From positions 10,125 through 74,124 of the forward strand of contig JAFVEZ010000047.1 of assembly GCA_017475745.1 (NCBI GenBank): a stretch of DNA of 64,000 bases. Direction: 5' to 3'. Source of the stretch: Selenomonadaceae bacterium. GTDB lineage: Bacteria > Bacillota > Negativicutes > Selenomonadales > Selenomonadaceae. The notes under the pieces are model-generated. The model was given only the letters and a program-made list of their open reading frames with translations. It was not told the origin of the DNA and ran no database searches. Within the stretch, counting starts at the first letter, position 1, and every line of letters starts with the position of its first letter. The position numbers were made by a program, and so were the translations under genes. This document shows positions 6,787-37,524 of this stretch, piece by piece.

Positions 6787-7629
6787 ATGTCAATGCCAAG
6801 AATTGGTCATATCAATTTTCTAAATGTGTTGCCTTTGACTTACAGCTATAAACATGGTTACTCGGAAGGAATGTCGTTGACTTACGCTGTGCCTTCCAAG
6901 CTGAACAGTGATATTAAAAACGCTAACCTTGATATTAGTCCGATCTCCTCTATCGAATATGCCAGACAGAGCAAAAATCTTCTACTCTTGCCAAATATCT
7001 GTATTCGTGCAGATTGTGATGTTCAGAGTATCGTCTTAGTCTCAAAGAAACCAATAGAACGGATAAACAGCGATAAAATTACCTTGACTTCAAAATCGGC
7101 AACCTCACATTGTCTCTTGAAGATCATTATGACAGAAGGTTATGGAGCAAGACCGACATATGAGGTAGCAAATATAAGCGCCGAAAATCCTATTCTCGCT
7201 GATACTACAGCTTCACTCTTGATAGGTGACGATGCTCTCTACAATTATTTAAACACACCCAAAAATTTATATTGCTACGACATTGGCAAAGAATGGCACA
7301 AATTAACGAGACACTCAATGGTGTATGCTGTTTGGGTTGTTAGAAAGGAATTTGCTAATGAGTCGCCGGAACTTGTAAAAAATGCCTATAATAAAATCAT
7401 TTCAGGAATGCAAAGTGGTATTAAAAACAAAAATCTTGCCATTAAATCTGTACTTCAAGAGAAGCCATTTACTTACGAGATTTTGGATCAATATTTGGGT
7501 GGAATAATTAAATGGGATCTACCCAAAGAAGCGATTGATTCCCTAATGATTTACTATCAATCTGCCTATAAATTACACTTAATTGACAGTGTGCCTGAAA
7601 TTGAATTTGTTGATATTGCATCAATTTAA
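6787..7629 (+). CDS. mqnA: chorismate dehydratase MqnA-like (futalosine menaquinone pathway)
   Basis: The N-terminus 'IGHINFLNVLPL' and the overall 280-aa layout match the MqnA/DUF178 family. Confidence 0.7.
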   Translation: MSMPRIGHINFLNVLPLTYSYKHGYSEGMSLTYAVPSKLNSDIKNANLDISPISSIEYARQSKNLLLLPNICIRADCDVQSIVLVSKKPIERINSDKITLTSKSATSHCLLKIIMTEGYGARPTYEVANISAENPILADTTASLLIGDDALYNYLNTPKNLYCYDIGKEWHKLTRHSMVYAVWVVRKEFANESPELVKNAYNKIISGMQSGIKNKNLAIKSVLQEKPFTYEILDQYLGGIIKWDLPKEAIDSLMIYYQSAYKLHLIDSVPEIEFVDIASI

Positions 7630-9099
7630 AGCAATGCGAGCATACTCATCAAGCATATCAATAAAAGTCATATGATTACGCTTGCTGGCTTTACTTGTGC
7701 CAATTTCAGATAAAACACCGTTGTAAATGTAAGACTCTACGCTACCAGGAATGAGATTTTCCCAATTTTTATACTCATAAGGTCTTTCGGATACTGCATT
7801 TTGCGGACGACCAATCACTTCCAATTCGCACAAAAATTGAATTTGCTTGGTCTTTGGTCTGATATAGTAGTGCTCAAGGAAATATTTCCTTGACCGAAGT
7901 ACCTTTTTATCAACTTCAGCATAATCAATTCCTTTTTCAGCAGCGTCGGCAATCTCGTTTTCTCCAGAATTAAGATATTGATATAAATTGTCGCCAGACG
8001 TATTAGGAGATTTTTCGATCATTCTAATCCAAACATCAGCCATATATTCGCTTGTTGAATAAGGCATACTGATCCACCGAACTGCACTTCGATCCAAATA
8101 ATATTCGTACGTTTCGTCACTCAACAGCTTAACAAAACGTGCTTTTTGTTTTTTGAGTTTCTTGTCATTTTCAGTTGTGCTGCTCTTTTTTGTCGTTCCT
8201 TCAGTATATGGATTTGATGTATCACCACTCGTTGTAACAGGCGTTGTGACATTTGTTGTATAGCCATTTTCACCTTCGCTGACTCCGTTGTTATATGGAT
8301 CATTAGTGCCAAGTTCACCGCCAGAACCGCTCGTTGTATTCCCAAAAGGAACTTCAGTTACATTTCCAGTTTCACCAGTTGAAATATTTCCACCTTCATT
8401 GAGACTCTCATTTCCGGTGTAATTGATATTCTCTTCAAAAGGCGGATTGTCGACAGGAGTCTCACTGCTAAAAGGATCAACTTCTACTTCCGGTTTTATT
8501 TCTTCTACAGGTGTTTCTATCGACGGATTGTCATTGTAGTTGCCGTTATAACTACTATCACCATTGCCATCATCAGTGGTGCCAACATTACCAGTATTGT
8601 CAGAGGTATTTAAATTTTCAACTTCAATCTCAGGTTTAAAATCCTCTACAGGTGTTTCTACAGGCTGATTTTCATTGTAATCACCGTTATCGCTACTATC
8701 ACCAACATTGCCTTTATTGGCATCATTAAAATTATTAGTACTGTCAGAGGTATTTAAATTCTCAACTTCAACTTCGGGTTTTATTTCTTCGATAGGCTCT
8801 TGAACTTCTGGCTGGTTTACATTTTCAACTGGAATATCCTCTGGCGGCTCAGTTTGAGTCTCTTCTGGAACTTCAGTGGTATTTTCGCTCTCATTGATTT
8901 GTTCTTCTGGAGTTTCGACAATAGTATTGCCCTCATCTATTGGTACATCATTATCAGTAGAAACTGTTTCAGCTTTAGGTTCAAATTCGTCACCGTAAAC
9001 AACTATATCATCATCTTCAGCAGAAACTAAAGGCAATGTAAAGAACATGGACATGACCGTCATTCCAATAATATATTTTTTCCATCTCATTTTACTCAC
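7621..9099 (-). CDS. secreted acidic tandem-repeat protein with an unassigned C-terminal domain
   Basis: The signal peptide is 'MTVMSMFFTLPLVSA|EDDD'. A D/E/N/T-rich region carries 2.5 copies of a unit of about 46 aa ('E(I/F)KPE(V/I)EVENLNTSD...'). The C-terminal 170 aa or so are non-repetitive and aromatic-rich. Confidence 0.7.
   Translation of the reverse strand: MSKMRWKKYIIGMTVMSMFFTLPLVSAEDDDIVVYGDEFEPKAETVSTDNDVPIDEGNTIVETPEEQINESENTTEVPEETQTEPPEDIPVENVNQPEVQEPIEEIKPEVEVENLNTSDSTNNFNDANKGNVGDSSDNGDYNENQPVETPVEDFKPEIEVENLNTSDNTGNVGTTDDGNGDSSYNGNYNDNPSIETPVEEIKPEVEVDPFSSETPVDNPPFEENINYTGNESLNEGGNISTGETGNVTEVPFGNTTSGSGGELGTNDPYNNGVSEGENGYTTNVTTPVTTSGDTSNPYTEGTTKKSSTTENDKKLKKQKARFVKLLSDETYEYYLDRSAVRWISMPYSTSEYMADVWIRMIEKSPNTSGDNLYQYLNSGENEIADAAEKGIDYAEVDKKVLRSRKYFLEHYYIRPKTKQIQFLCELEVIGRPQNAVSERPYEYKNWENLIPGSVESYIYNGVLSEIGTSKASKRNHMTFIDMLDEYARIALN
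8470..8799 (-). repeat. in-frame tandem repeat (about 140 nt unit, about 2.5 copies) inside the acidic secreted protein gene
   Basis: The DNA blocks '...ggttttatttcttc(t/g)a(c/t)agg...' recur near 8500, 8635 and 8775. They correspond to the peptide repeats. Confidence 0.7.
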
Positions 9100-9735: not shown

Positions 9736-10443
9736 ATGATAAAAATGACCTCTATGAAAAAGAAATTTTTGACCGGCATGCTTACAGGTGCTTTGTTCTT
9801 TGTGGGCGGCTTGGGAAGTTACAGGGCTTTTGCTGCAGAGTGTCCTGAAAACATTAATCAAATGCCTAAATTTGGGCAAATGGGACATCACGGCATGAAA
9901 TCTCACATGCCAAAACTCTCGGAAGAGCAAATTAATGAGCTTTCAAAGAATATCGCTGAAAAATATGGCTTAGAAGAAGCTGAAATCTCACAAGCATTGA
10001 AAGATCGCAATAACAATCTTCATGATATCAAAGTTGCTGCAATGCTCGCCAAGATCAGCGGTAAAAGTTTTACCTCAGTACTAGAAATGAAGAGCAACTG
10101 GTGGCAAGTTGGAGAGAAGTTAGGTGTCACTTCCGATCAAGTTAAAGACTTTTTCAAACAAGAAATGGCAGAAAAACTCGCCAATGAAAGCTCACTTGAT
10201 ACCAAAATCATTGACGATTTGATTAAAGACGGTTACAATCCTCATGACATTGTCATTGCAGGAAAAATTGCAAAGACCGCGAATAAAAATGTAAAGAGTG
10301 TTTTGGCAAAGAAGAAGATTAACAACACTTGGAGTGAAGTTGCGAAAGATTTTGGCGTTGACATTAAAGAGATTATGCCAAAATACAGCAACTTTAAAGG
10401 AAATCATTTTAATCGCGGCTTCGGTATGACGAATGATAAATAA
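9736..10443 (+). CDS. secreted hypothetical protein with a His/Met-rich stretch and two internal repeats
   Basis: The signal peptide is 'MKKKFLTGMLTGALFFVGG...FAA'. It is followed by 'MGHHGMKSHM'. A unit of about 45 aa is duplicated ('HDI(K/V).A..(L/I)AK......SVL...K....W..V(G/A)..(L/F)GV'). The start is probably the ATG at 9745 or 9754. Confidence 0.6.
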   Translation: MIKMTSMKKKFLTGMLTGALFFVGGLGSYRAFAAECPENINQMPKFGQMGHHGMKSHMPKLSEEQINELSKNIAEKYGLEEAEISQALKDRNNNLHDIKVAAMLAKISGKSFTSVLEMKSNWWQVGEKLGVTSDQVKDFFKQEMAEKLANESSLDTKIIDDLIKDGYNPHDIVIAGKIAKTANKNVKSVLAKKKINNTWSEVAKDFGVDIKEIMPKYSNFKGNHFNRGFGMTNDK

Positions 10444-19203: not shown

Positions 19204-20508
19204 TCAAGCTCTCGGTTTGCCACATTCGGCACAAAACTTGCCTTTGTTGCCTTCGTGGCCACATTCAGAGCAAGTCCACTCAGCACTATCCGCTGGCTTC
19301 GGCTTGCCGCACTCTTGACAGAACTTACCGGTATTCTTTGCACCACATTCGCACTGCCACTCACCTGCCGGAGCTGGTTTAGGCTTGCCACATTCGGCAC
19401 AGAACTTACCGTTATTGCCAGAATGTCCACAGGAACAAGTCCAGCCACCTGCCGCTTGTTGGGCTTGCGGTTTATTCTGCTGTTGATTCTTGCCGATCAC
19501 ATCAAACATTGCATTGACGTTTGAGCCACCGCCCATATTGTTGAGCATGCCCATACCCATAAATCCTGTCATTGCGCCTGCTGTGTTGCCTGCGGCGGTC
19601 TTCATAGCTTCAGCACTGGAAGCAACATAGTTGGCAGCCATCATATCAGGTGAACTCAAAGCCCTCGTGCGCTGGAGGTCTTTAATCATCTGTTGATCTT
19701 CGTCAGGAATGGTGACACTGCTGATACCAAACTCAACAACCTCAATGCCGCGTCTCTCGCTCCACTTTGCATCAAGGACTTTATTCAATACTTCAGCGAT
19801 CTCCATAGTATGAGCTGGCAAGGAGTTCGGACGGATCTCCAATTCAGAGATTTTAGCAAAAGCGGGTTGCAATGCCGTCAAGAGTTCAGTTTTGAGCTGA
19901 CTGTCAATCTGATCGCGAGTATAGCTTTCAGTGACATTACCGCAGACATTACCATAGAACTTAATCGGATCGACAATCCTATAGCTGTACTCGCCGAAGC
20001 AGCGAACAGAAATATCAGCATCTAAGCCTATATTTCTATCAACAGCACGGAACGGAATTGGCGAAGCTGTGCCATATTTATTGCCGACTATCTCCTTGAT
20101 ATTGAAGTAATAGATTCGCTGATCCTTACCAGGAGCGCCGCCGAACGCAAAACGCCTGCCAATCTCCTCAGTCAAAATAGCCAGTTTCTCCATAATAGTT
20201 GAGCCGTTGACCAAGACTGAAGCCGCAGAGTTAGCATCATAAGTGTAGTTACCAGGTTCAGCACAGACTTCCATAACCTTGCCATCATCAACGATAATCA
20301 TACATTGTCCGTCATTGACAACGAGTTTGGAACCGTTAGTGATGATATTCTCGCCGGAAGTGTTACCGCTACGATTTTGAGTACCACCATGACGTTTTCC
20401 GATGGTAACGAGAGTGTCGACAGGAATACTGTCACAGTAATAATAATCTTTCCACTGATCGGCAAGAGAGCCGCCCAATGCGCCCAAAGCCGCTTTTATC
20501 AAACCCAT
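19204..20508 (-). CDS. SPFH/band-7 domain protein (YdjI/COG4260-like) with three C-terminal zinc ribbons
   Basis: The N-terminal 340 aa or so resemble the SPFH 'virion core protein-like' family. The C-terminus carries three copies of 'W.C.CG......GKFC.ECGKP(K/R)'. Confidence 0.7.
   Translation of the reverse strand: MGLIKAALGALGGSLADQWKDYYYCDSIPVDTLVTIGKRHGGTQNRSGNTSGENIITNGSKLVVNDGQCMIIVDDGKVMEVCAEPGNYTYDANSAASVLVNGSTIMEKLAILTEEIGRRFAFGGAPGKDQRIYYFNIKEIVGNKYGTASPIPFRAVDRNIGLDADISVRCFGEYSYRIVDPIKFYGNVCGNVTESYTRDQIDSQLKTELLTALQPAFAKISELEIRPNSLPAHTMEIAEVLNKVLDAKWSERRGIEVVEFGISSVTIPDEDQQMIKDLQRTRALSSPDMMAANYVASSAEAMKTAAGNTAGAMTGFMGMGMLNNMGGGSNVNAMFDVIGKNQQQNKPQAQQAAGGWTCSCGHSGNNGKFCAECGKPKPAPAGEWQCECGAKNTGKFCQECGKPKPADSAEWTCSECGHEGNKGKFCAECGKPRA
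19207..19449 (-). repeat. three tandem copies (about 81-84 nt each) encoding zinc-ribbon modules
   Basis: DNA blocks 'ggcttgcc(a/g)ca(t/c)tc..gaca(a/g)aactt(g/a)cc' recur three times. Confidence 0.8.
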
Positions 20509-31849: not shown

Positions 31850-34117
31850 TTAACTCCTCTTTTCCTCTAATTTTTGTTTGACGAATTGATAAATTTTTTC
31901 TCCGGCTCTTCCGTCCATACTAGCATTAAATTTTCTGTATGTTTCTAATTGCGTTTCTCTATCAAATTTTTTACCGGGCAATTTATTATCTAAAAGTTTT
32001 TTCAAAGTTTGAAATGTTCCTTCATAGCAACCATATGGTTCCCATTCTGTTCGTGCTTTAAATCCACTAGAATATCGTACAACTTCTTCCATATCGAAAG
32101 TAATGTCGATCTTATCAAAGGTTTTGGATTTTAAATCAAACTTATAACACTGTCTATCTGAAGACAAATACCAGAAGAATACTTCATCTTTATCGGGCAA
32201 ATATTTAAACATACCTGTATTTGTGTAACTAAAATAACCATTTTTTATTTTGAATGAAACCTCAAATGGTGTCTCCCACTCTTGTATATGACCTGTTTTT
32301 TTGTCGAGTCTGACGAACATATTACCCCAATATGGAACTAGAAATACCTCATTTTCATCACATATTGCACTCGCAAAAGGTCGCTCATTACAAACAATTC
32401 CTTGTGGAATCATTTGACACTGAAAACCTTGTGGAAGCCCAGAGTATTCTGTAACAGTTCCATCTGTCATATTTAATCTTGTAATAGTTTTTCCTAAATA
32501 TGGCAGAAGCCAAAAAGTTTCACCATCAGGCACCATTGATATAAATCCGCCTTTTGTCGGCTTTTGTGAAGGTAATGTTATATACTGCATTTCGGTAGTT
32601 TCTATATTTACAATCAAAACCGCTCTTTTATTTGGTGAGACAAGAAGCAAATTACCATTCCAAATGCCATATGAATCACGATAAGCATAAGAAGGATTGG
32701 GTTGTACGAAAAAGTCATTAAATCCAGAAATATATTTAATTTCATCATTATGAATATTGTAACGCACCAAATAAGGATAATTATTAGGCACGATGAATAC
32801 ATAATCACCAATATGAATAACTTCTGAGAAAAGATGACGACGATTGTCATTTTGAACTTTTTTCAGTGGGATTTTACGTTCTACTTTGTGATCGCCTATA
32901 ACTAATATATCTTGAGCGTAATATGGAAAAACTAAAACTTTTCTATTAATTTCTAATACATGTTTATAATAATTTCCAGCACCATAATCAGAAAGCGTAC
33001 AATAATAATTATAATGATAGTTAGAATCTGAGGATTTATAGAGTTTATTACCTTGTGTTATAATCCAATTTTTACATTCAGGATGGAATACTCTAATAAA
33101 TATATGTTTTTTATCGTCTTCTGTTGGTAAAGTATTTATATTATTATTCAAGAAAAAAGATGGTTTTCCTGCTACACCAAAAAGAGAAGTTACACTGGTT
33201 TTGATGCCTCCTATATATACATCTGAAATAGCTATAGATTTATCAATATCGGCAGTATCATCATATATTCCTATATCATTTTCTATGAAGTACTGTTTAA
33301 GTTGATTGTAAGCAGTTTGAGCTTCTTGACGCATTGAACCTAAAGTTGCATTTATTAAAGGGTGAGGACGCCATAATAAACAAGCATCATCTCTGCCGGA
33401 AAAAGTTTCAAATACATAACGCATCTTTAATAAAAATCTTTCGGTATCTTGGAGTAATCCGCTCAAACTGGTATTATAGAAGTACACTTTTCTTCCATTT
33501 ATCTTTTCTTTCCATTCTTCTGGAGCTTCAGGTGGATTTTGACACATTTGAATAACTCTATCAAACTTTGGCGACCCAAGTGGTTGGAGTTTTTCAACAG
33601 GAATAGAAGGATCAAAAAATGACCTCATTGCTTCAGATTGGATCATTATGTAATCAGAATTATCATATGAAGGCATGTACTTTTGACCTTCAGACATCAA
33701 ACCTGTAGTAGCATAATAAGGTACATAAATTAGTAATTTCGTCAAGAGTTTCAAATTAGATGAATAGAAAGAAGCGTCAACAGAAGTTACAAGATTATAA
33801 TTGTCATAAGGATTGTGAATGAATATTACATCAGGTTTTAACTTCTTGAGATCGACTTTTTTGTAGTCCAAAACAGGAACATCTTTTGGAAATGAGTCTA
33901 TCTCACAATGCCATTTTGCAACTTTTCTATCTGGTGTGAGGTCTGCATAAGGTATAGGGATAACATAAGTATTGCAATATTCTTTATCCTCAAAAGCTGC
34001 TTGCCAAATACTCTCCAAAGAATCCCACATAGAAGCTTTGTATGGAAGAAAGACTATATTTTTTTTGATGTATTTTGAACTTTTGAAACTTTTAAACCTA
34101 CTTTTTATTTTTGCCAT
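31850..34117 (-). CDS. TagF-like glycerophosphotransferase-like domain fused to a 6-7 bladed beta-propeller-like C-terminal region
   Basis: The N-terminal half has 'LLWRPHPL' and 'ISDVY', which parallel the RLHP and SDYSS motifs of the two TagF paralogues. The C-terminal half has blades of about 45-50 aa ('..(V/F)(F/W)(L/I)(V/L)P(Y/N).....(V/I).R(L/Y)(N/D)'). Confidence 0.5.
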   Translation of the reverse strand: MAKIKSRFKSFKSSKYIKKNIVFLPYKASMWDSLESIWQAAFEDKEYCNTYVIPIPYADLTPDRKVAKWHCEIDSFPKDVPVLDYKKVDLKKLKPDVIFIHNPYDNYNLVTSVDASFYSSNLKLLTKLLIYVPYYATTGLMSEGQKYMPSYDNSDYIMIQSEAMRSFFDPSIPVEKLQPLGSPKFDRVIQMCQNPPEAPEEWKEKINGRKVYFYNTSLSGLLQDTERFLLKMRYVFETFSGRDDACLLWRPHPLINATLGSMRQEAQTAYNQLKQYFIENDIGIYDDTADIDKSIAISDVYIGGIKTSVTSLFGVAGKPSFFLNNNINTLPTEDDKKHIFIRVFHPECKNWIITQGNKLYKSSDSNYHYNYYCTLSDYGAGNYYKHVLEINRKVLVFPYYAQDILVIGDHKVERKIPLKKVQNDNRRHLFSEVIHIGDYVFIVPNNYPYLVRYNIHNDEIKYISGFNDFFVQPNPSYAYRDSYGIWNGNLLLVSPNKRAVLIVNIETTEMQYITLPSQKPTKGGFISMVPDGETFWLLPYLGKTITRLNMTDGTVTEYSGLPQGFQCQMIPQGIVCNERPFASAICDENEVFLVPYWGNMFVRLDKKTGHIQEWETPFEVSFKIKNGYFSYTNTGMFKYLPDKDEVFFWYLSSDRQCYKFDLKSKTFDKIDITFDMEEVVRYSSGFKARTEWEPYGCYEGTFQTLKKLLDNKLPGKKFDRETQLETYRKFNASMDGRAGEKIYQFVKQKLEEKRS

Positions 34118-34181: not shown

Positions 34182-35264
34182 TTACTGGATTTTCTCAGAA
34201 ATCTTTTCAAGTACCTTGACATCTTGTTCACTGAGTATGGTGTACTGTTCCAATGCGGTTTTCATTAATCCATTGTATGCGTCTATTTTAGTTGTAAGTT
34301 TAATAATGTCATCTTTCATGGTCTTGATTGCGGTAGTAACATCAATGGCAGCTTTGTTGACATTGTTATTGAGGTCAATTACCTGTTCATTCGTTTGTGA
34401 AATTCCTTCAGAGATATTTCTATTTACTTCACTGAGATTATCTACACTAGAGGTCATTGAATTTCCACTCTCGGATATATAATCTTTCATATCCCTCAAA
34501 TCGGATAGCTTTTCTGATGCCTCAATCATTGAGATTTTAATATCATCAAGCATATTCAGTTTTTCTAAGGTATCAAGCTTGTCTAATTTGTCCATTTTTT
34601 CGTTTAGAGTTTCCATTGTTTTACTGAGTTGTGTCAAATCTTTTGCAAATGGCGGAGCTTTTAACATCTGCCCAATCACTTGCATTAGTTTTAAACCTGT
34701 TTGAACTGTAGTTTGAGAGGATTCTGTAAGCTCGTTAAGTTTATTAGAATTTTCCTCAAGAGTATTGAATTTTTCTTCAAAGTCTGACATCTTTTCTATC
34801 GTCACTTTTAGCAATTTTGTTTCAGCTTCTGAGTTTTCAGCTAATTTTTGCAAAACTTCTTGATTAGATTTTGAATTCTCAACTAAAATATTTATTACTG
34901 TCTTTAGCTCTGAATTTGATTCTGCAATTTCCATTAGGGTATCGAGTCTGTCTAGTTTATCTCGAATTACTTGAAGTTCCTCTTCCAATCTGTCTGAGCC
35001 ATTACTTATCGCTCTTATTATGGCTTCATCAGAATTATCGCCATCACCCAATTTGTGTCGAAGTTGCTGGAATTGTATCTCTAGGCGCTGATGATTTTCT
35101 TCCTGCGCCATTGCTGCTTGCATTATACTTTTTTTGACAAAGAATGCCGAAATGATAGCACAAAGTGCGCCTATACCGATACCTATCACTTCATCGCCTT
35201 TTATTAAGGCACCTATACTCACTAAGGCAAAGAATACTGCTCCTGCCGTTGAGTTTTCGTTCAT
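34182..35264 (-). CDS. membrane-anchored long coiled-coil protein (unknown function)
   Basis: The N-terminus has hydrophobic segments 'GAVFFALVSIGALI' and 'VIGIGIGALCAIISAFFV'. About 300 aa of heptad-like helical sequence follow ('KLDKLDTLEKLNMLDD'). Its start overlaps the upstream stop (ATGA). Confidence 0.6.
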   Translation of the reverse strand: MNENSTAGAVFFALVSIGALIKGDEVIGIGIGALCAIISAFFVKKSIMQAAMAQEENHQRLEIQFQQLRHKLGDGDNSDEAIIRAISNGSDRLEEELQVIRDKLDRLDTLMEIAESNSELKTVINILVENSKSNQEVLQKLAENSEAETKLLKVTIEKMSDFEEKFNTLEENSNKLNELTESSQTTVQTGLKLMQVIGQMLKAPPFAKDLTQLSKTMETLNEKMDKLDKLDTLEKLNMLDDIKISMIEASEKLSDLRDMKDYISESGNSMTSSVDNLSEVNRNISEGISQTNEQVIDLNNNVNKAAIDVTTAIKTMKDDIIKLTTKIDAYNGLMKTALEQYTILSEQDVKVLEKISEKIQ

Positions 35265-36361
35265 TTTATCATTCCTCTCAATTTATCAATATGCTCCTCA
35301 AGTTCACCCTTAACTGTTTCCAGAACTTCGTTGCAGACAAAGTGCTCATATCTATCAAGAAATTCTTCTTTTATGCCGTAGAAGCGACCACCTGGCCTAT
35401 CAACTAACGATAAGTAAATGTGTTCGCTGCCGGACTCATCATTGTTCAAGAAGTTGTGATATTTTTTTGGTGACATCATATACTGAACGAATCGATCATA
35501 TAACTTTTCCTTCAACTGATTCAGATCAACTTCTACATTCCAGATAAAAGCCGCGAGATTTTTTCCTTGCTCATTAGGATTGTATAAGATTTTTCTATAA
35601 AGGTCAATAGCCTCATATATGCCTGCCCTAATGTTTTTGGTTTTTGGGAATAGGACCTTCTGAGCAGCTTCATTATAACACTTCCAAATGTGAGGGCGGC
35701 CTTTGACATTATCAAAGGAAGTTATCTGGGATTTAACCGAAGGATTTAAACAACCGCTAGTTCTCCAATTTTCAATATACTCTGTATAGTATTCACCGCA
35801 TAAATTTACCTGATTGCGAATTTCCTTCAATTCGTGTTCAATGCGGCGTCTCAAATCAGTCACCAAAGGTCTGTGCCAATGCAAGACTTCTAGTACATCT
35901 GTCTCACTTCTTGCGGCAATCACGTCGCGTCCTTTTCTTTTCAAAACAGCCATTCGATTTGCGGCATCAATAATGGGTTCATAGTCAATATCATCTAGCA
36001 AGTCCATAAGCACAAATAAGGTCATCGGTTCATTTCTACCAAACTCTAAAAGATTTGCCAGATTTTCCGTTGATTCTCTGCCAAGTGGATGAGTTTCAAA
36101 CAATGTACATTTATCAAACTTCTTTAAATCAAAATGTAAATCTTCTCCGTAAGTTGGAACAAATACTTCCATACCAGGCAGCATATTGTATGTTGTCACA
36201 ATTAGTGCCGATTCTTCCTCTTGCAGATTGTATTTGACGGTATCATATTTTATCAATATGGTCTTTTGTCCTTGCCCTGGCAAGTCTTTTAAAGATATCT
36301 TCAAAAGCCAGCATACGAAGAGCCATCTTGAATCGTCACCGAGAAATATCCATTTGATCAT
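35261..36361 (-). CDS. cytoplasmic hypothetical protein (alpha/beta N-terminal half, helical C-terminal half)
   Basis: GAGGGG lies 5 nt before the ATG at 36361 (MIKWIFLGDD...). I recognise no family signature. Confidence 0.55.
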   Translation of the reverse strand: MIKWIFLGDDSRWLFVCWLLKISLKDLPGQGQKTILIKYDTVKYNLQEEESALIVTTYNMLPGMEVFVPTYGEDLHFDLKKFDKCTLFETHPLGRESTENLANLLEFGRNEPMTLFVLMDLLDDIDYEPIIDAANRMAVLKRKGRDVIAARSETDVLEVLHWHRPLVTDLRRRIEHELKEIRNQVNLCGEYYTEYIENWRTSGCLNPSVKSQITSFDNVKGRPHIWKCYNEAAQKVLFPKTKNIRAGIYEAIDLYRKILYNPNEQGKNLAAFIWNVEVDLNQLKEKLYDRFVQYMMSPKKYHNFLNNDESGSEHIYLSLVDRPGGRFYGIKEEFLDRYEHFVCNEVLETVKGELEEHIDKLRGMIK

Positions 36362-36384
36362 CTGCACCCCTCACTCAATGAAAA

Positions 36385-37416
36385 TTATTTTATAAAGCTG
36401 AAATGTTCTTTTAAATCGGATTCTTCTTCAGAATTCTGTACATTGATAAATCCTGCACGAAGTGTCCTTAATTTGTCAGTTGTATTGTGATGCTCTTTAT
36501 TGATGTCGAAGATCATATCAGCTATAGCATTATTAAATTTCACCATTAGTCCAAAAATTCCTGTCTCACGCTTTTCGGCTAAACTGTTATTGACAATCTT
36601 AATTTCTTGCTGCAGCCATTCTTTTGTGAGGTTGTCAACATCTTCGGCACCTCTTGGAATATTCACCCTAGAAAGACCCTGCTTGATTTCAGTTAATCCT
36701 CTATTGTATTGCTTTAATTGGTCGATATTAGCTTGAGAGAGGTCTCTGGGTATTCTGAAGTGTTCTCTTACAAAGCGACTTAAAGTCAAAACATCTGTAT
36801 CTTCATTTTGAAAATATTGATTTACGGCCATAGTATCTATATTACTAAATAAATCTTTCTCTGTTGTTGACTCCAATGAATCTGATGATTGCTCACTTTT
36901 ATCCAAATTATCTGTCTGATTTACTGATTGCTCCATTTTAATGGTTTGTTCATTTACTTTGGAAGTTTTGTTTGGTTCGGTGTATTGAATTGCTATAAAA
37001 CAAATGAAAGCTATAACTGCAAGTGCCATTGAACCGACGAATAAATGAGCAGACAGACGGCGAAAAGTCAACAATGACAACGTAAAGAGTGCTGCAAGTC
37101 CAAAGGCTCCGTACATAGTCACAGGCTGCAGAACATTGACGATATCATAGATTTTTATTTTAGATTCAGTACTGAGAATAGGTCGGGCAGTTGACCAATA
37201 ATCATTCCAATTTTGATCCCAAGTAGATTGATAAACTATAGATAAATATGCCAATCCCAAAAGTATCAGTGAGATAGTAGAAAACAGCCATACCATGTAG
37301 GGTTTAGCCTGAACTTTTTTCTTGATACCTTTTCGTAGCTCGTTGAAGGCTGAAAATGCACTGTAAATGAAAAATATTGATAATATCACCAACATTGTGG
37401 CGATTACATAAAACAT
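36385..37416 (-). CDS. 4-TM membrane protein with a low-complexity linker and an unassigned soluble C-terminal domain
   Basis: There are four hydrophobic helices in the first 150 aa or so. An S/T/E/Q-rich linker follows, then a domain of about 150 aa. AGGAG lies 9 nt before the ATG. Confidence 0.6.
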   Translation of the reverse strand: MFYVIATMLVILSIFFIYSAFSAFNELRKGIKKKVQAKPYMVWLFSTISLILLGLAYLSIVYQSTWDQNWNDYWSTARPILSTESKIKIYDIVNVLQPVTMYGAFGLAALFTLSLLTFRRLSAHLFVGSMALAVIAFICFIAIQYTEPNKTSKVNEQTIKMEQSVNQTDNLDKSEQSSDSLESTTEKDLFSNIDTMAVNQYFQNEDTDVLTLSRFVREHFRIPRDLSQANIDQLKQYNRGLTEIKQGLSRVNIPRGAEDVDNLTKEWLQQEIKIVNNSLAEKRETGIFGLMVKFNNAIADMIFDINKEHHNTTDKLRTLRAGFINVQNSEEESDLKEHFSFIK

Positions 37417-37454
37417 AAGATTTTACTCCTAAAATTAACTTGACTTATCTGTAT

Positions 37455-37483
37455 ATTTTAATCCAATTATTAAGAAAGTGCAA
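37455..37483 (-). promoter_or_regulatory. predicted promoter of the three-gene unknown operon
   Basis: The minus strand reads TTGCAC-N17-TAAAAT, directly after the terminator of the 3D-domain gene. Confidence 0.5.
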
Positions 37484-37486
37484 ATG

Positions 37487-37524
37487 TAAAAATTAAAGGC
37501 ACCTCTCAATGATAAGAGATGCCT
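37487..37524 (-). terminator. intrinsic terminator of the 3D-domain gene
   Basis: The minus strand has stem AGGCATCTCT/AGAGGTGCCT (one G-U pair) followed by TTTAATTTTT. Confidence 0.65.

Follow-up and report, generated by a model that had tools for sequence, protein, structure and literature searches.

A pair of adjacent genes in a Selenomonadaceae bacterium, g2 (35261-36361, minus strand, 366 aa) and g3 (34182-35264, minus strand, 360 aa), appears to be a descendant, without dynamin-like proteins (DLPs), of the accessory half of a six-gene DLP operon; g2 would be a pseudo-dynamin, g3 its membrane anchor, and the two together a scaffold. The probability of this interpretation is put at roughly 0.55. 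Coordinates refer to a stretch of 64,000 nucleotides (contig JAFVEZ010000047.1, positions 10,125 to 74,124 of the forward strand; hereafter the window), in which the pair is preceded by a third gene, g1 (36385-37416, minus strand, 343 aa). The three genes had been singled out, from the letters of the DNA alone, as an operon of unassignable proteins placed in front of a glycan locus (hereafter the original prediction), and three co-oriented minus-strand open reading frames (ORFs) were indeed found there in the ORF list of the window. Related loci are numbered L001 to L029.

At the level of sequence, the failure of the original prediction to place g1, g2, or g3 in a family by motif was reproduced. 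Profile searches (Pfam, NCBIfam, PADLOC, and PHROGs) gave no match above noise for g1 and g2, and for g3 only sub-threshold matches of coiled-coil type (the tail of ZorA, Mce4_CUP1, SMC, and tape measure proteins). Profile scans of 38 diverse g2 relatives also gave nothing above noise, and PDB sequence searches with g2 profiles gave no match. Among 5.8 billion proteins, each of the three has 22-33 homologue clusters, a single one of which is named, as "hypothetical protein". At the level of structure, the label "unassignable" fails, as the model of g2 matches proteins of the dynamin family. An exhaustive profile search yielded 57 g2 representatives, mostly full-length (350-400 aa). A first model, from 19 close sequences, had a weak N-terminal domain (predicted local distance difference test, pLDDT, 72.5) and already matched bacterial DLPs; the final AlphaFold2 model, based on an alignment of 38 sequences, reached a pLDDT of 90.8 and a predicted template-modelling score (pTM) of 0.75. 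It comprises a small-GTPase-like α/β domain (residues 1-160) and a helical domain (residues 166-365), which bears out the earlier description of g2 as a cytoplasmic α/β plus helical protein of about 366 aa and corresponds to the arrangement of the dynamin superfamily, in which a GTPase-fold domain is followed by a helical stalk or neck. Foldseek against the PDB retrieved the Campylobacter DLP (5oxf_C, E 1.1e-6), CmDnm1 (6fgz, 2e-5), and IniA (6j73, 9e-5), and further Drp1, Nostoc BDLP (2j68), and EHD4; the N-terminal domain matched dozens of Rab/Rap GTPases (TMt 0.5-0.59). A viral structure library returned only GTPase and dynamin-type proteins. For many independent GTPase or dynamin entries in the two libraries the Foldseek probability was 0.99-1.00, and the top 50 contained no competing fold class. 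By its modelled fold, g2 is thus dynamin-superfamily-like, with a degenerate G1 motif.

The degeneration concerns the phosphate-binding loop. Where a GTPase carries the G1 P-loop GxxxxGK[ST] between β1 and α1, the model of g2 has β1 (residues 2-8) and α1 (residues 11-20) joined by just three loop residues, G8-D-D, followed by S11-R12. The motif found at this position throughout the family is LGDxS[RK], whereas the DLPs encoded in the same operons as distant g2 relatives (see below) carry G-x-x-S-x-G-K-S. Because the loop is shortened to G-D-[DE]-S-R, loss of GTP binding is predicted, and g2 is probably a pseudo-GTPase, most likely without canonical binding or hydrolysis of GTP. The earlier statement that no P-loop is present therefore holds for the sequence and needs amending insofar as the fold is GTPase-like. 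Two other motifs, FExFPFxKxST and VLMDLPRxxGSTD, are characteristic of the family. The second of them follows a β-strand and resembles, by eye and without statistical support, the dynamin "DLPG" (G3 DxxG); the clade of the window carries LMDLLDD in its place. A G4 motif was not seen in the g2 family when motifs were compared by eye.

The link to dynamins is also drawn by gene order. All five distant g2 homologues with a readable context (L024, L025/L026, L027, L028, and L029) lie directly after three genes for Dynamin_N proteins of ~760-830 aa, and the conserved order of the operon is DLP1-DLP2-DLP3-g2-g3-small protein. The operon, or part of it, occupies L025:969-10386, L028:1664-12710, L029:2811-12534, L027:1189-9521, and L024:1039-10176. 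The three DLPs are 1:1 orthologous across the five loci and match the Eleos LeoA and LeoBC models of PADLOC (E 1e-8 to 1e-23); in L024 they are split, and the 90% cluster of the L024 g2 includes a Dialister protein. Downstream of g2 a hairpin-anchored helical protein of 314-389 aa is encoded, followed in L025, L028, and L029 by a protein of 99-128 aa; no small gene was called after g3 in L024, and the L027 contig ends inside the gene at the g3 position. At most gene boundaries the stop and start codons overlap or directly adjoin each other, which, together with the linkage to three dynamins, argues for a physical complex. The small protein is helical, carries the motif QFxxY[RH]RAxxYL...C[EQ]KxF, and has homologues in the 95-102-aa ORFs that come next after g3 in L001, L013, L018, and L020, all from Selenomonadaceae (blastp E 1e-6 to 1e-12, one weak pair 4e-3). 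The g2 of the window is homologous to the members of the operon with profile E-values of 1e-13 to 5e-48 (6.5e-7 for the most distant, L029). Of the six genes, the window has g2 and g3, to which g1 is added; a homologue of the small protein was not found in it. In the literature, no account was found of an operon that combines three DLPs with accessory genes, and none of dynamins in Negativicutes.

A short loop in g2 follows the presence of the dynamins. This [GA]S[ST]D loop of 3-4 residues is kept in all five of the DLP-linked proteins and absent from all 12 DLP-less members of the Selenomonadaceae; the affected region corresponds to residues 112-134 of the window g2 (DNA about 35960-36028). 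Its loss was probably one evolutionary event, and, judged from the alignment, the loop is a candidate for an element that g2 needs when it works with dynamins, at a contact or at the nucleotide site.

The partner protein g3 had been described as a membrane-anchored coiled coil of about 300 aa. Its anchored and helical nature stood, the length is 360 aa, and the anchor consists of two adjacent hydrophobic helices (about residues 5-23 and 24-47 by hydropathy) forming a hairpin. The hairpin is followed by a long helical or coiled-coil domain, predicted to be cytoplasmic, and by the conserved C-terminal motif Y341-x-x-L-S-E-Q-D348. Each of the proteins at the g3 position of the dynamin operons begins with the same two-helix hairpin and carries Y-x-x-[IL]-[ST]-[AE]-[QK]-D-x-x-h-h at the C-terminus, and the g3 hidden Markov model (HMM) scored 23.8 bits on that of L025. 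Because no transmembrane segment was found in the DLPs by hydropathy, whereas g3 has one, g3 is the sole integral membrane protein of the operon. In the window, the start codon of g3 overlaps the stop codon of g2 (ATGA, as originally noted), through which g3 would be made in a fixed ratio with g2. The g3 profile also matched the cytoplasmic domains of methyl-accepting chemotaxis proteins (E 4e-7), beside designed coiled coils, sigma-1, and SNAREs; this was read as generic coiled-coil similarity, and membership in the chemotaxis protein family was rejected. Identity with ZorA, SMC, or tape measure proteins was likewise rejected, as only coiled-coil regions align, far under the cut-offs: the coiled-coil tail of ZorA (Zorya) reached 20-26 bits on g3, where the cut-off is 750 bits, and no MotA domain was present.

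In contrast to the pair, which is more widespread, g1 is a lineage-specific addition limited to the sub-clade of the window (at least 51% identity). All of its 33 homologue clusters are at least 51% identical, and none contains a Pfam domain. Hydropathy and alignment confirmed the proposed protein with four transmembrane helices, a low-complexity linker, and a further domain: the helices span residues 1-25, 39-64, 99-118, and 121-148, the variable linker residues ~150-190, and the conserved helical C-terminal domain ~150 aa, ending in FSFIK. Because the K/R-rich loops of the four-helix part are cytoplasmic, the C-terminal domain is probably periplasmic by the positive-inside rule. The g1 gene lies immediately 5′ of g2 wherever the contig reaches past g1 (L004, L007, L008, L009, and L021; the contig of L022 stops after g1) and is always preceded by a gene for a 3D-domain cell-wall-binding protein, except in L004 and L007.

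According to a genome scan, the family is hosted by uncultured rumen Selenomonadaceae (Negativicutes); a metagenome scan with the window-clade alignment added one fragment. The complete triad recurs in L004, L007, L009, and L021, so that a lack of co-occurrence in any other genome, named at the outset as an outcome that would speak against a triad, was not what was found; the expectation of co-occurrence held for these loci and failed beyond the one sub-clade to which g1 is confined. L009 and L021 also show the order 3D-g1-g2-g3-755aa-CTP_transf/GFO-Glyphos_transf, and L004 shows it from g1 on; 755aa here denotes the gene for a 755-aa protein that heads the glycan island. In L007, g1-g2-g3 is followed by unrelated genes without the island; g2-g3 stands without g1 or island in L005, L011, and L023, and together with a ~100-aa ORF in L001 and L013 (42-45% identity). 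Neighbours in the L001/L013 group are PlsC/ABC genes or, in L013, a 453-aa ORF resembling UDP-glucose dehydrogenase by eye; elsewhere, DLP-less g2 genes adjoin ORFs resembling RadA and GyrA by eye. Altogether, g3 follows g2 in at least nine DLP-less loci (L001, L004, L005, L007, L009, L011, L013, L021, and L023), and the comparison of gene order across loci identifies g2-g3 as the conserved core. A g3 with the small ORF and without g2 was found in L018 and L020. In L018:1099-4452 and L019:1015-4419, a gene for GmrSD (type IV restriction) is located directly upstream of the g3 homologue and its small partner; no g2 is detectable on these contigs, and the module seems to have decayed or been rearranged here too, beside a defence gene. 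A 321-333-aa ORF directly after g3 in L007:11962-12963 and L023:11229-12194 (68% identical, in otherwise different surroundings) has no Pfam or PHROGs match, is absent from the window, and is possibly one more accessory gene. Two genes downstream of the triad, L007:14027-14860 encodes a 277-aa protein the N-terminus of which looks FtsZ/tubulin-like by eye (IKVIGVGELGAKVINHAIE).

Several results weigh against a descent of the pair from the DLP operon. Neither Dynamin_N nor MMR_HSR1 was matched by g2 or by the 38 family members, and the hhalign profile-profile comparison of g2 with the co-operonic DLPs was not significant (probability 0.9%), the single stretch that it aligned being "LGDxS--RY" of g2 and "VGEFSAGKST" of the DLPs. 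Global TM-scores of g2 against full-length dynamins were 0.24-0.33, which is low because g2 is half their size. For g3, neither the HMM on the g3-position protein of L024 nor an hhalign comparison of its family with the g3 proteins of the dynamin operons gave a significant result, which means that sequence homology is weak or absent. The DLP-linked contexts are five samples among roughly 40 distant representatives, the 64-kb window contains no dynamin gene, and g2 occurs alone, without g3, in five Selenomonadaceae loci (L012 and L014-L017, 38-44% identity), so that the pair is not obligate. It might be argued from such results that the resemblance to dynamins is a generic one, of a three-layer α/β domain with added helices, and that g2, as a regulator or enzyme of other descent, happens to share operons with dynamins in some lineages. 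Consistent with this are the high root-mean-square deviations (8 Å against Rab and >20 Å against full dynamins), the lack of recognisable G1, G4, and G5 motifs in g2, and the fact that FExFPFxKxST and LMDLPRxxGSTD lie outside any curated family. The Foldseek probabilities from two libraries, the absence of a rival fold class from the top 50, and the linkage to three dynamin genes in five of five sampled distant relatives nevertheless make a merely generic likeness unlikely. It is still harder to see in the triad a self-contained anti-phage system bordering a variable surface-glycan island, despite the fact that two-gene dynamin systems defend against phages (10.1101/2022.05.11.491447), that the DLPs of the ancestral operon match the Eleos models, that this operon follows WYL regulators in L025 and L028 and has HEPN/MNT, HNH, and NERD-UvrD genes nearby, and that GmrSD directly precedes the g3-small-protein pair in L018. 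The triad has no effector domain, and the PADLOC models left g1, g2, and g3 without a match beyond coiled-coil noise. Its surroundings in the window are core housekeeping genes (RqcH, the 3D-domain protein, flagellar genes, and tRNA synthetases), and DLP-less g2 genes adjoin PlsC and ORFs that by eye are RadA- and GyrA-like. Inheritance within the Selenomonadaceae looks vertical. In plasmids and phages, tblastn with g2 and its DLP-linked relatives gave no match, and IMG/VR contained no relative. Together with the housekeeping neighbourhood, this lack of matches also led to the rejection of prophage or plasmid cargo.

The original prediction had favoured yet another explanation, that the triad is the missing exporter or chain-length-control module of the adjacent polymer. 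The island is teichoic-acid-like (two GT2 and two Glyphos_transf domains, DUF5672, a GT9-like protein, and cytidylyltransferases), and its domain content indeed includes no recognisable exporter. Moreover, g1 and g3 are membrane proteins beside a glycan locus, g3 being coiled-coil-like as is Wzz; no terminator separates g3 from the gene for the 755-aa protein, the gap measuring 15 nt in L004; and the order g1-g2-g3-755aa-CTP_transf/GFO recurs in L004, L009, and L021. Surface-glycan genes are also found near related modules in L020:1974-4909 (PS_pyruv_trans, methyltransferase) and L028:13295-21215 (Glyco_transf_61, PS_pyruv_trans), the UDP-glucose dehydrogenase-like ORF in L013 (355-1716) is located upstream of the pair, and g1 showed sub-threshold matches to Wzy_C (E 0.014) and DUF4131 (8e-4). 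Yet g2 is soluble and GTPase-like in fold, its deep relatives sit in dynamin operons, and none of the three proteins matches the ABC, MOP/Wzx, TagGH, or Wzz families. With four transmembrane helices and no transporter signature, g1 differs from the exporters TagGH and Wzx (the flippase profile has 10-14 transmembrane helices). In Wzz-type polysaccharide co-polymerases, transmembrane helices flank a periplasmic coiled coil, whereas in g3 the hydrophobic helices are adjacent at the N-terminus and the helical domain is predicted to be cytoplasmic. Nor is the triad always found beside TagF/GT loci, as only some of the related loci have the island next to it: g2-g3 occurs without it in L001, L005, L007, L011, L013, and L023, in L007 even as the complete triad, and no glycan genes are near at L001, L005, L007, L011, L016, L017, and L023. 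An export or length-control role is thus unsupported and very improbable, and the comparison suggests that the island is a neighbour of the triad, not a partner. The second option of the original prediction, an unrelated membrane-associated system riding beside the island, was broadly right in kind; what it lacked was the putative origin of the pair in the accessory part of a triple-DLP operon.

If g2 and g3 do descend from that operon, a mechanism can be sketched. The g3 hairpin would sit in the cytoplasmic membrane, with the long helical domain projecting into the cytoplasm, and would dock g2 at the inner face of the membrane. Together the two would form a scaffold or adaptor, independent of nucleotides, by which stressed membrane is marked or stabilised, and g1 may couple the pair to the envelope. 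In its ancestral setting the pair would recruit the three dynamin GTPases, or regulate them, in repairing membranes or countering phages; where dynamins are no longer adjacent, as in rumen Selenomonadaceae, it would act alone or with dynamins encoded elsewhere. Modelling and comparison suggest in this respect a loss of nucleotide binding, an interaction of g2 with g3, and a membrane-scaffold function of the pair. A more far-reaching proposal, made tentatively and with the odds against it, is that g2, g3, and the ~100-aa protein are unrecognised membrane-anchoring or sensing subunits of a WYL-regulated triple-dynamin system, of which the pair has been domesticated as an autonomous nucleotide-independent scaffold in rumen Selenomonadaceae.

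That g1, g2, and g3 are real, tightly packed genes under strong purifying selection was evident from a comparison with four related loci, which gave pN values (nonsynonymous differences) of 0.15-0.28 and pS values (synonymous differences) of 0.68-0.86; conservation and pN being far smaller than pS rule out chance ORFs. The g1 gene is preceded by an AGGAG ribosome-binding site and separated from g2 by 23 nt, close to the about 20 nt first given. For g2, the ORF list places the start at GTG 36367; ATG 36361, 5 nt behind a GAGGGG Shine-Dalgarno sequence, is likelier and results in the length of 366 aa common to all homologues. An intrinsic terminator of the upstream 3D-domain gene (37497..37524, minus strand; 12-bp stem with 5 GC pairs, then TTAATTTTT) marks the start of the g1-g2-g3 transcription unit, and a stem-loop with a T-run upstream of g1 is also present in L008, L009, and L021. 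The promoter proposed behind this terminator, TTGCAC (37483-37478)-N17-TAAAAT (37460-37455) on the minus strand, was confirmed by direct reading of the sequence and by its conservation: although the intergenic DNA around it has diverged, TTTGCAC-N17-TAAAAT is kept in L004, L008, L009, L021/L022, and the window, and GGAT directly before the -10 element is retained in most of these loci. The proteins of the five related loci sharing the promoter are 51-85% identical. By themselves, the consensus scans did not exceed chance: 32 promoter-like sites were counted where 29.3 were expected, and 4 terminator-like sites where 3.7 were. As originally stated, the 64-nt gap between g3 and the gene for the 755-aa protein contains no terminator-like site, and a promoter-like sequence, TTGACA-N17-TATAAA (34178-34150, minus strand), is present there, in common with L009. 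The AT-rich composition thought to be shared with the island was confirmed in part: the GC content of the triad (0.35-0.38) is intermediate between that of the island (0.30) and that of the flanks (0.40-0.44).

The 755-aa protein itself (31850-34117, minus strand), labelled TagF-like in the original prediction, has no Pfam, NCBIfam, or PDB-sequence match, and no profile match backs TagF or any other family; it represents an unassigned family of its own, which also heads the glycan island in L004, L009, and L021 (58-64% identity). Just past the far end of the island, an SPFH/Band-7 protein of 434 aa is encoded (19204-20508, minus strand; Band_7_1, E 2.5e-22), so that a second gene of membrane organisation lies in the vicinity of the triad. 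Two further ORFs of the window, at 7621-9099 (minus strand, 492 aa) and 9736-10443 (plus strand, 235 aa), have no Pfam match at E <= 1e-4. The recurrence of glycan genes near the related modules may just reflect shared residence in variable genome regions.

Bacterial DLPs tether and repair membranes, mostly as operon pairs (PMC6104087), and the two-gene dynamin system Eleos as well as DynA are anti-phage factors (10.1101/2022.05.11.491447; PMC12998192). Like Nostoc BDLP, Campylobacter Cj-DLP1/2, Mycobacterium IniA, and B. subtilis DynA, g2 combines a GTPase-fold head with a helical stalk, and like the DLP pairs it belongs to a multi-subunit, membrane-directed gene set. It differs from them in size (366 aa as compared with 600-800 aa) and in the lack of a Dynamin_N match, of a Walker A/G1 motif, and of a paddle; attachment to the membrane has apparently been delegated to a separate hairpin protein, g3. 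The ancestral operon resembles Eleos in that its DLPs match the LeoA/LeoBC models and that it lies in defence-like surroundings with WYL regulators, but Eleos consists of two dynamin genes without accessory genes (10.1101/2022.05.11.491447), as opposed to three DLPs with g2, g3, and the ~100-aa protein here. The triad of the window is not an Eleos system, since neither LeoA nor LeoBC is matched by g1, g2, or g3 and the window encodes no dynamin. With pseudo-GTPases, of which CENP-M and the pG domains of p190RhoGAP are examples, g2 shares a G-domain fold that is kept, nucleotide motifs that have degenerated, and a presumed role as scaffold or regulator; a sequence relationship, or a specific structural one, to these proteins is absent.

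To our knowledge, the membrane targeting and the regulation of bacterial DLPs are largely unknown, and these proteins have been described mainly as pairs. The analysis removes a false lead, the triad as the missing exporter of the teichoic-acid-like polymer. The six-gene operon offers candidates for a dynamin receptor or regulator, namely a probable pseudo-GTPase of dynamin shape, the sole membrane anchor, and a small helical protein. In the lineage of the window, two of the three have been kept under strong selection although no dynamins are adjacent, which amounts to a natural "dynamin-less" experiment.

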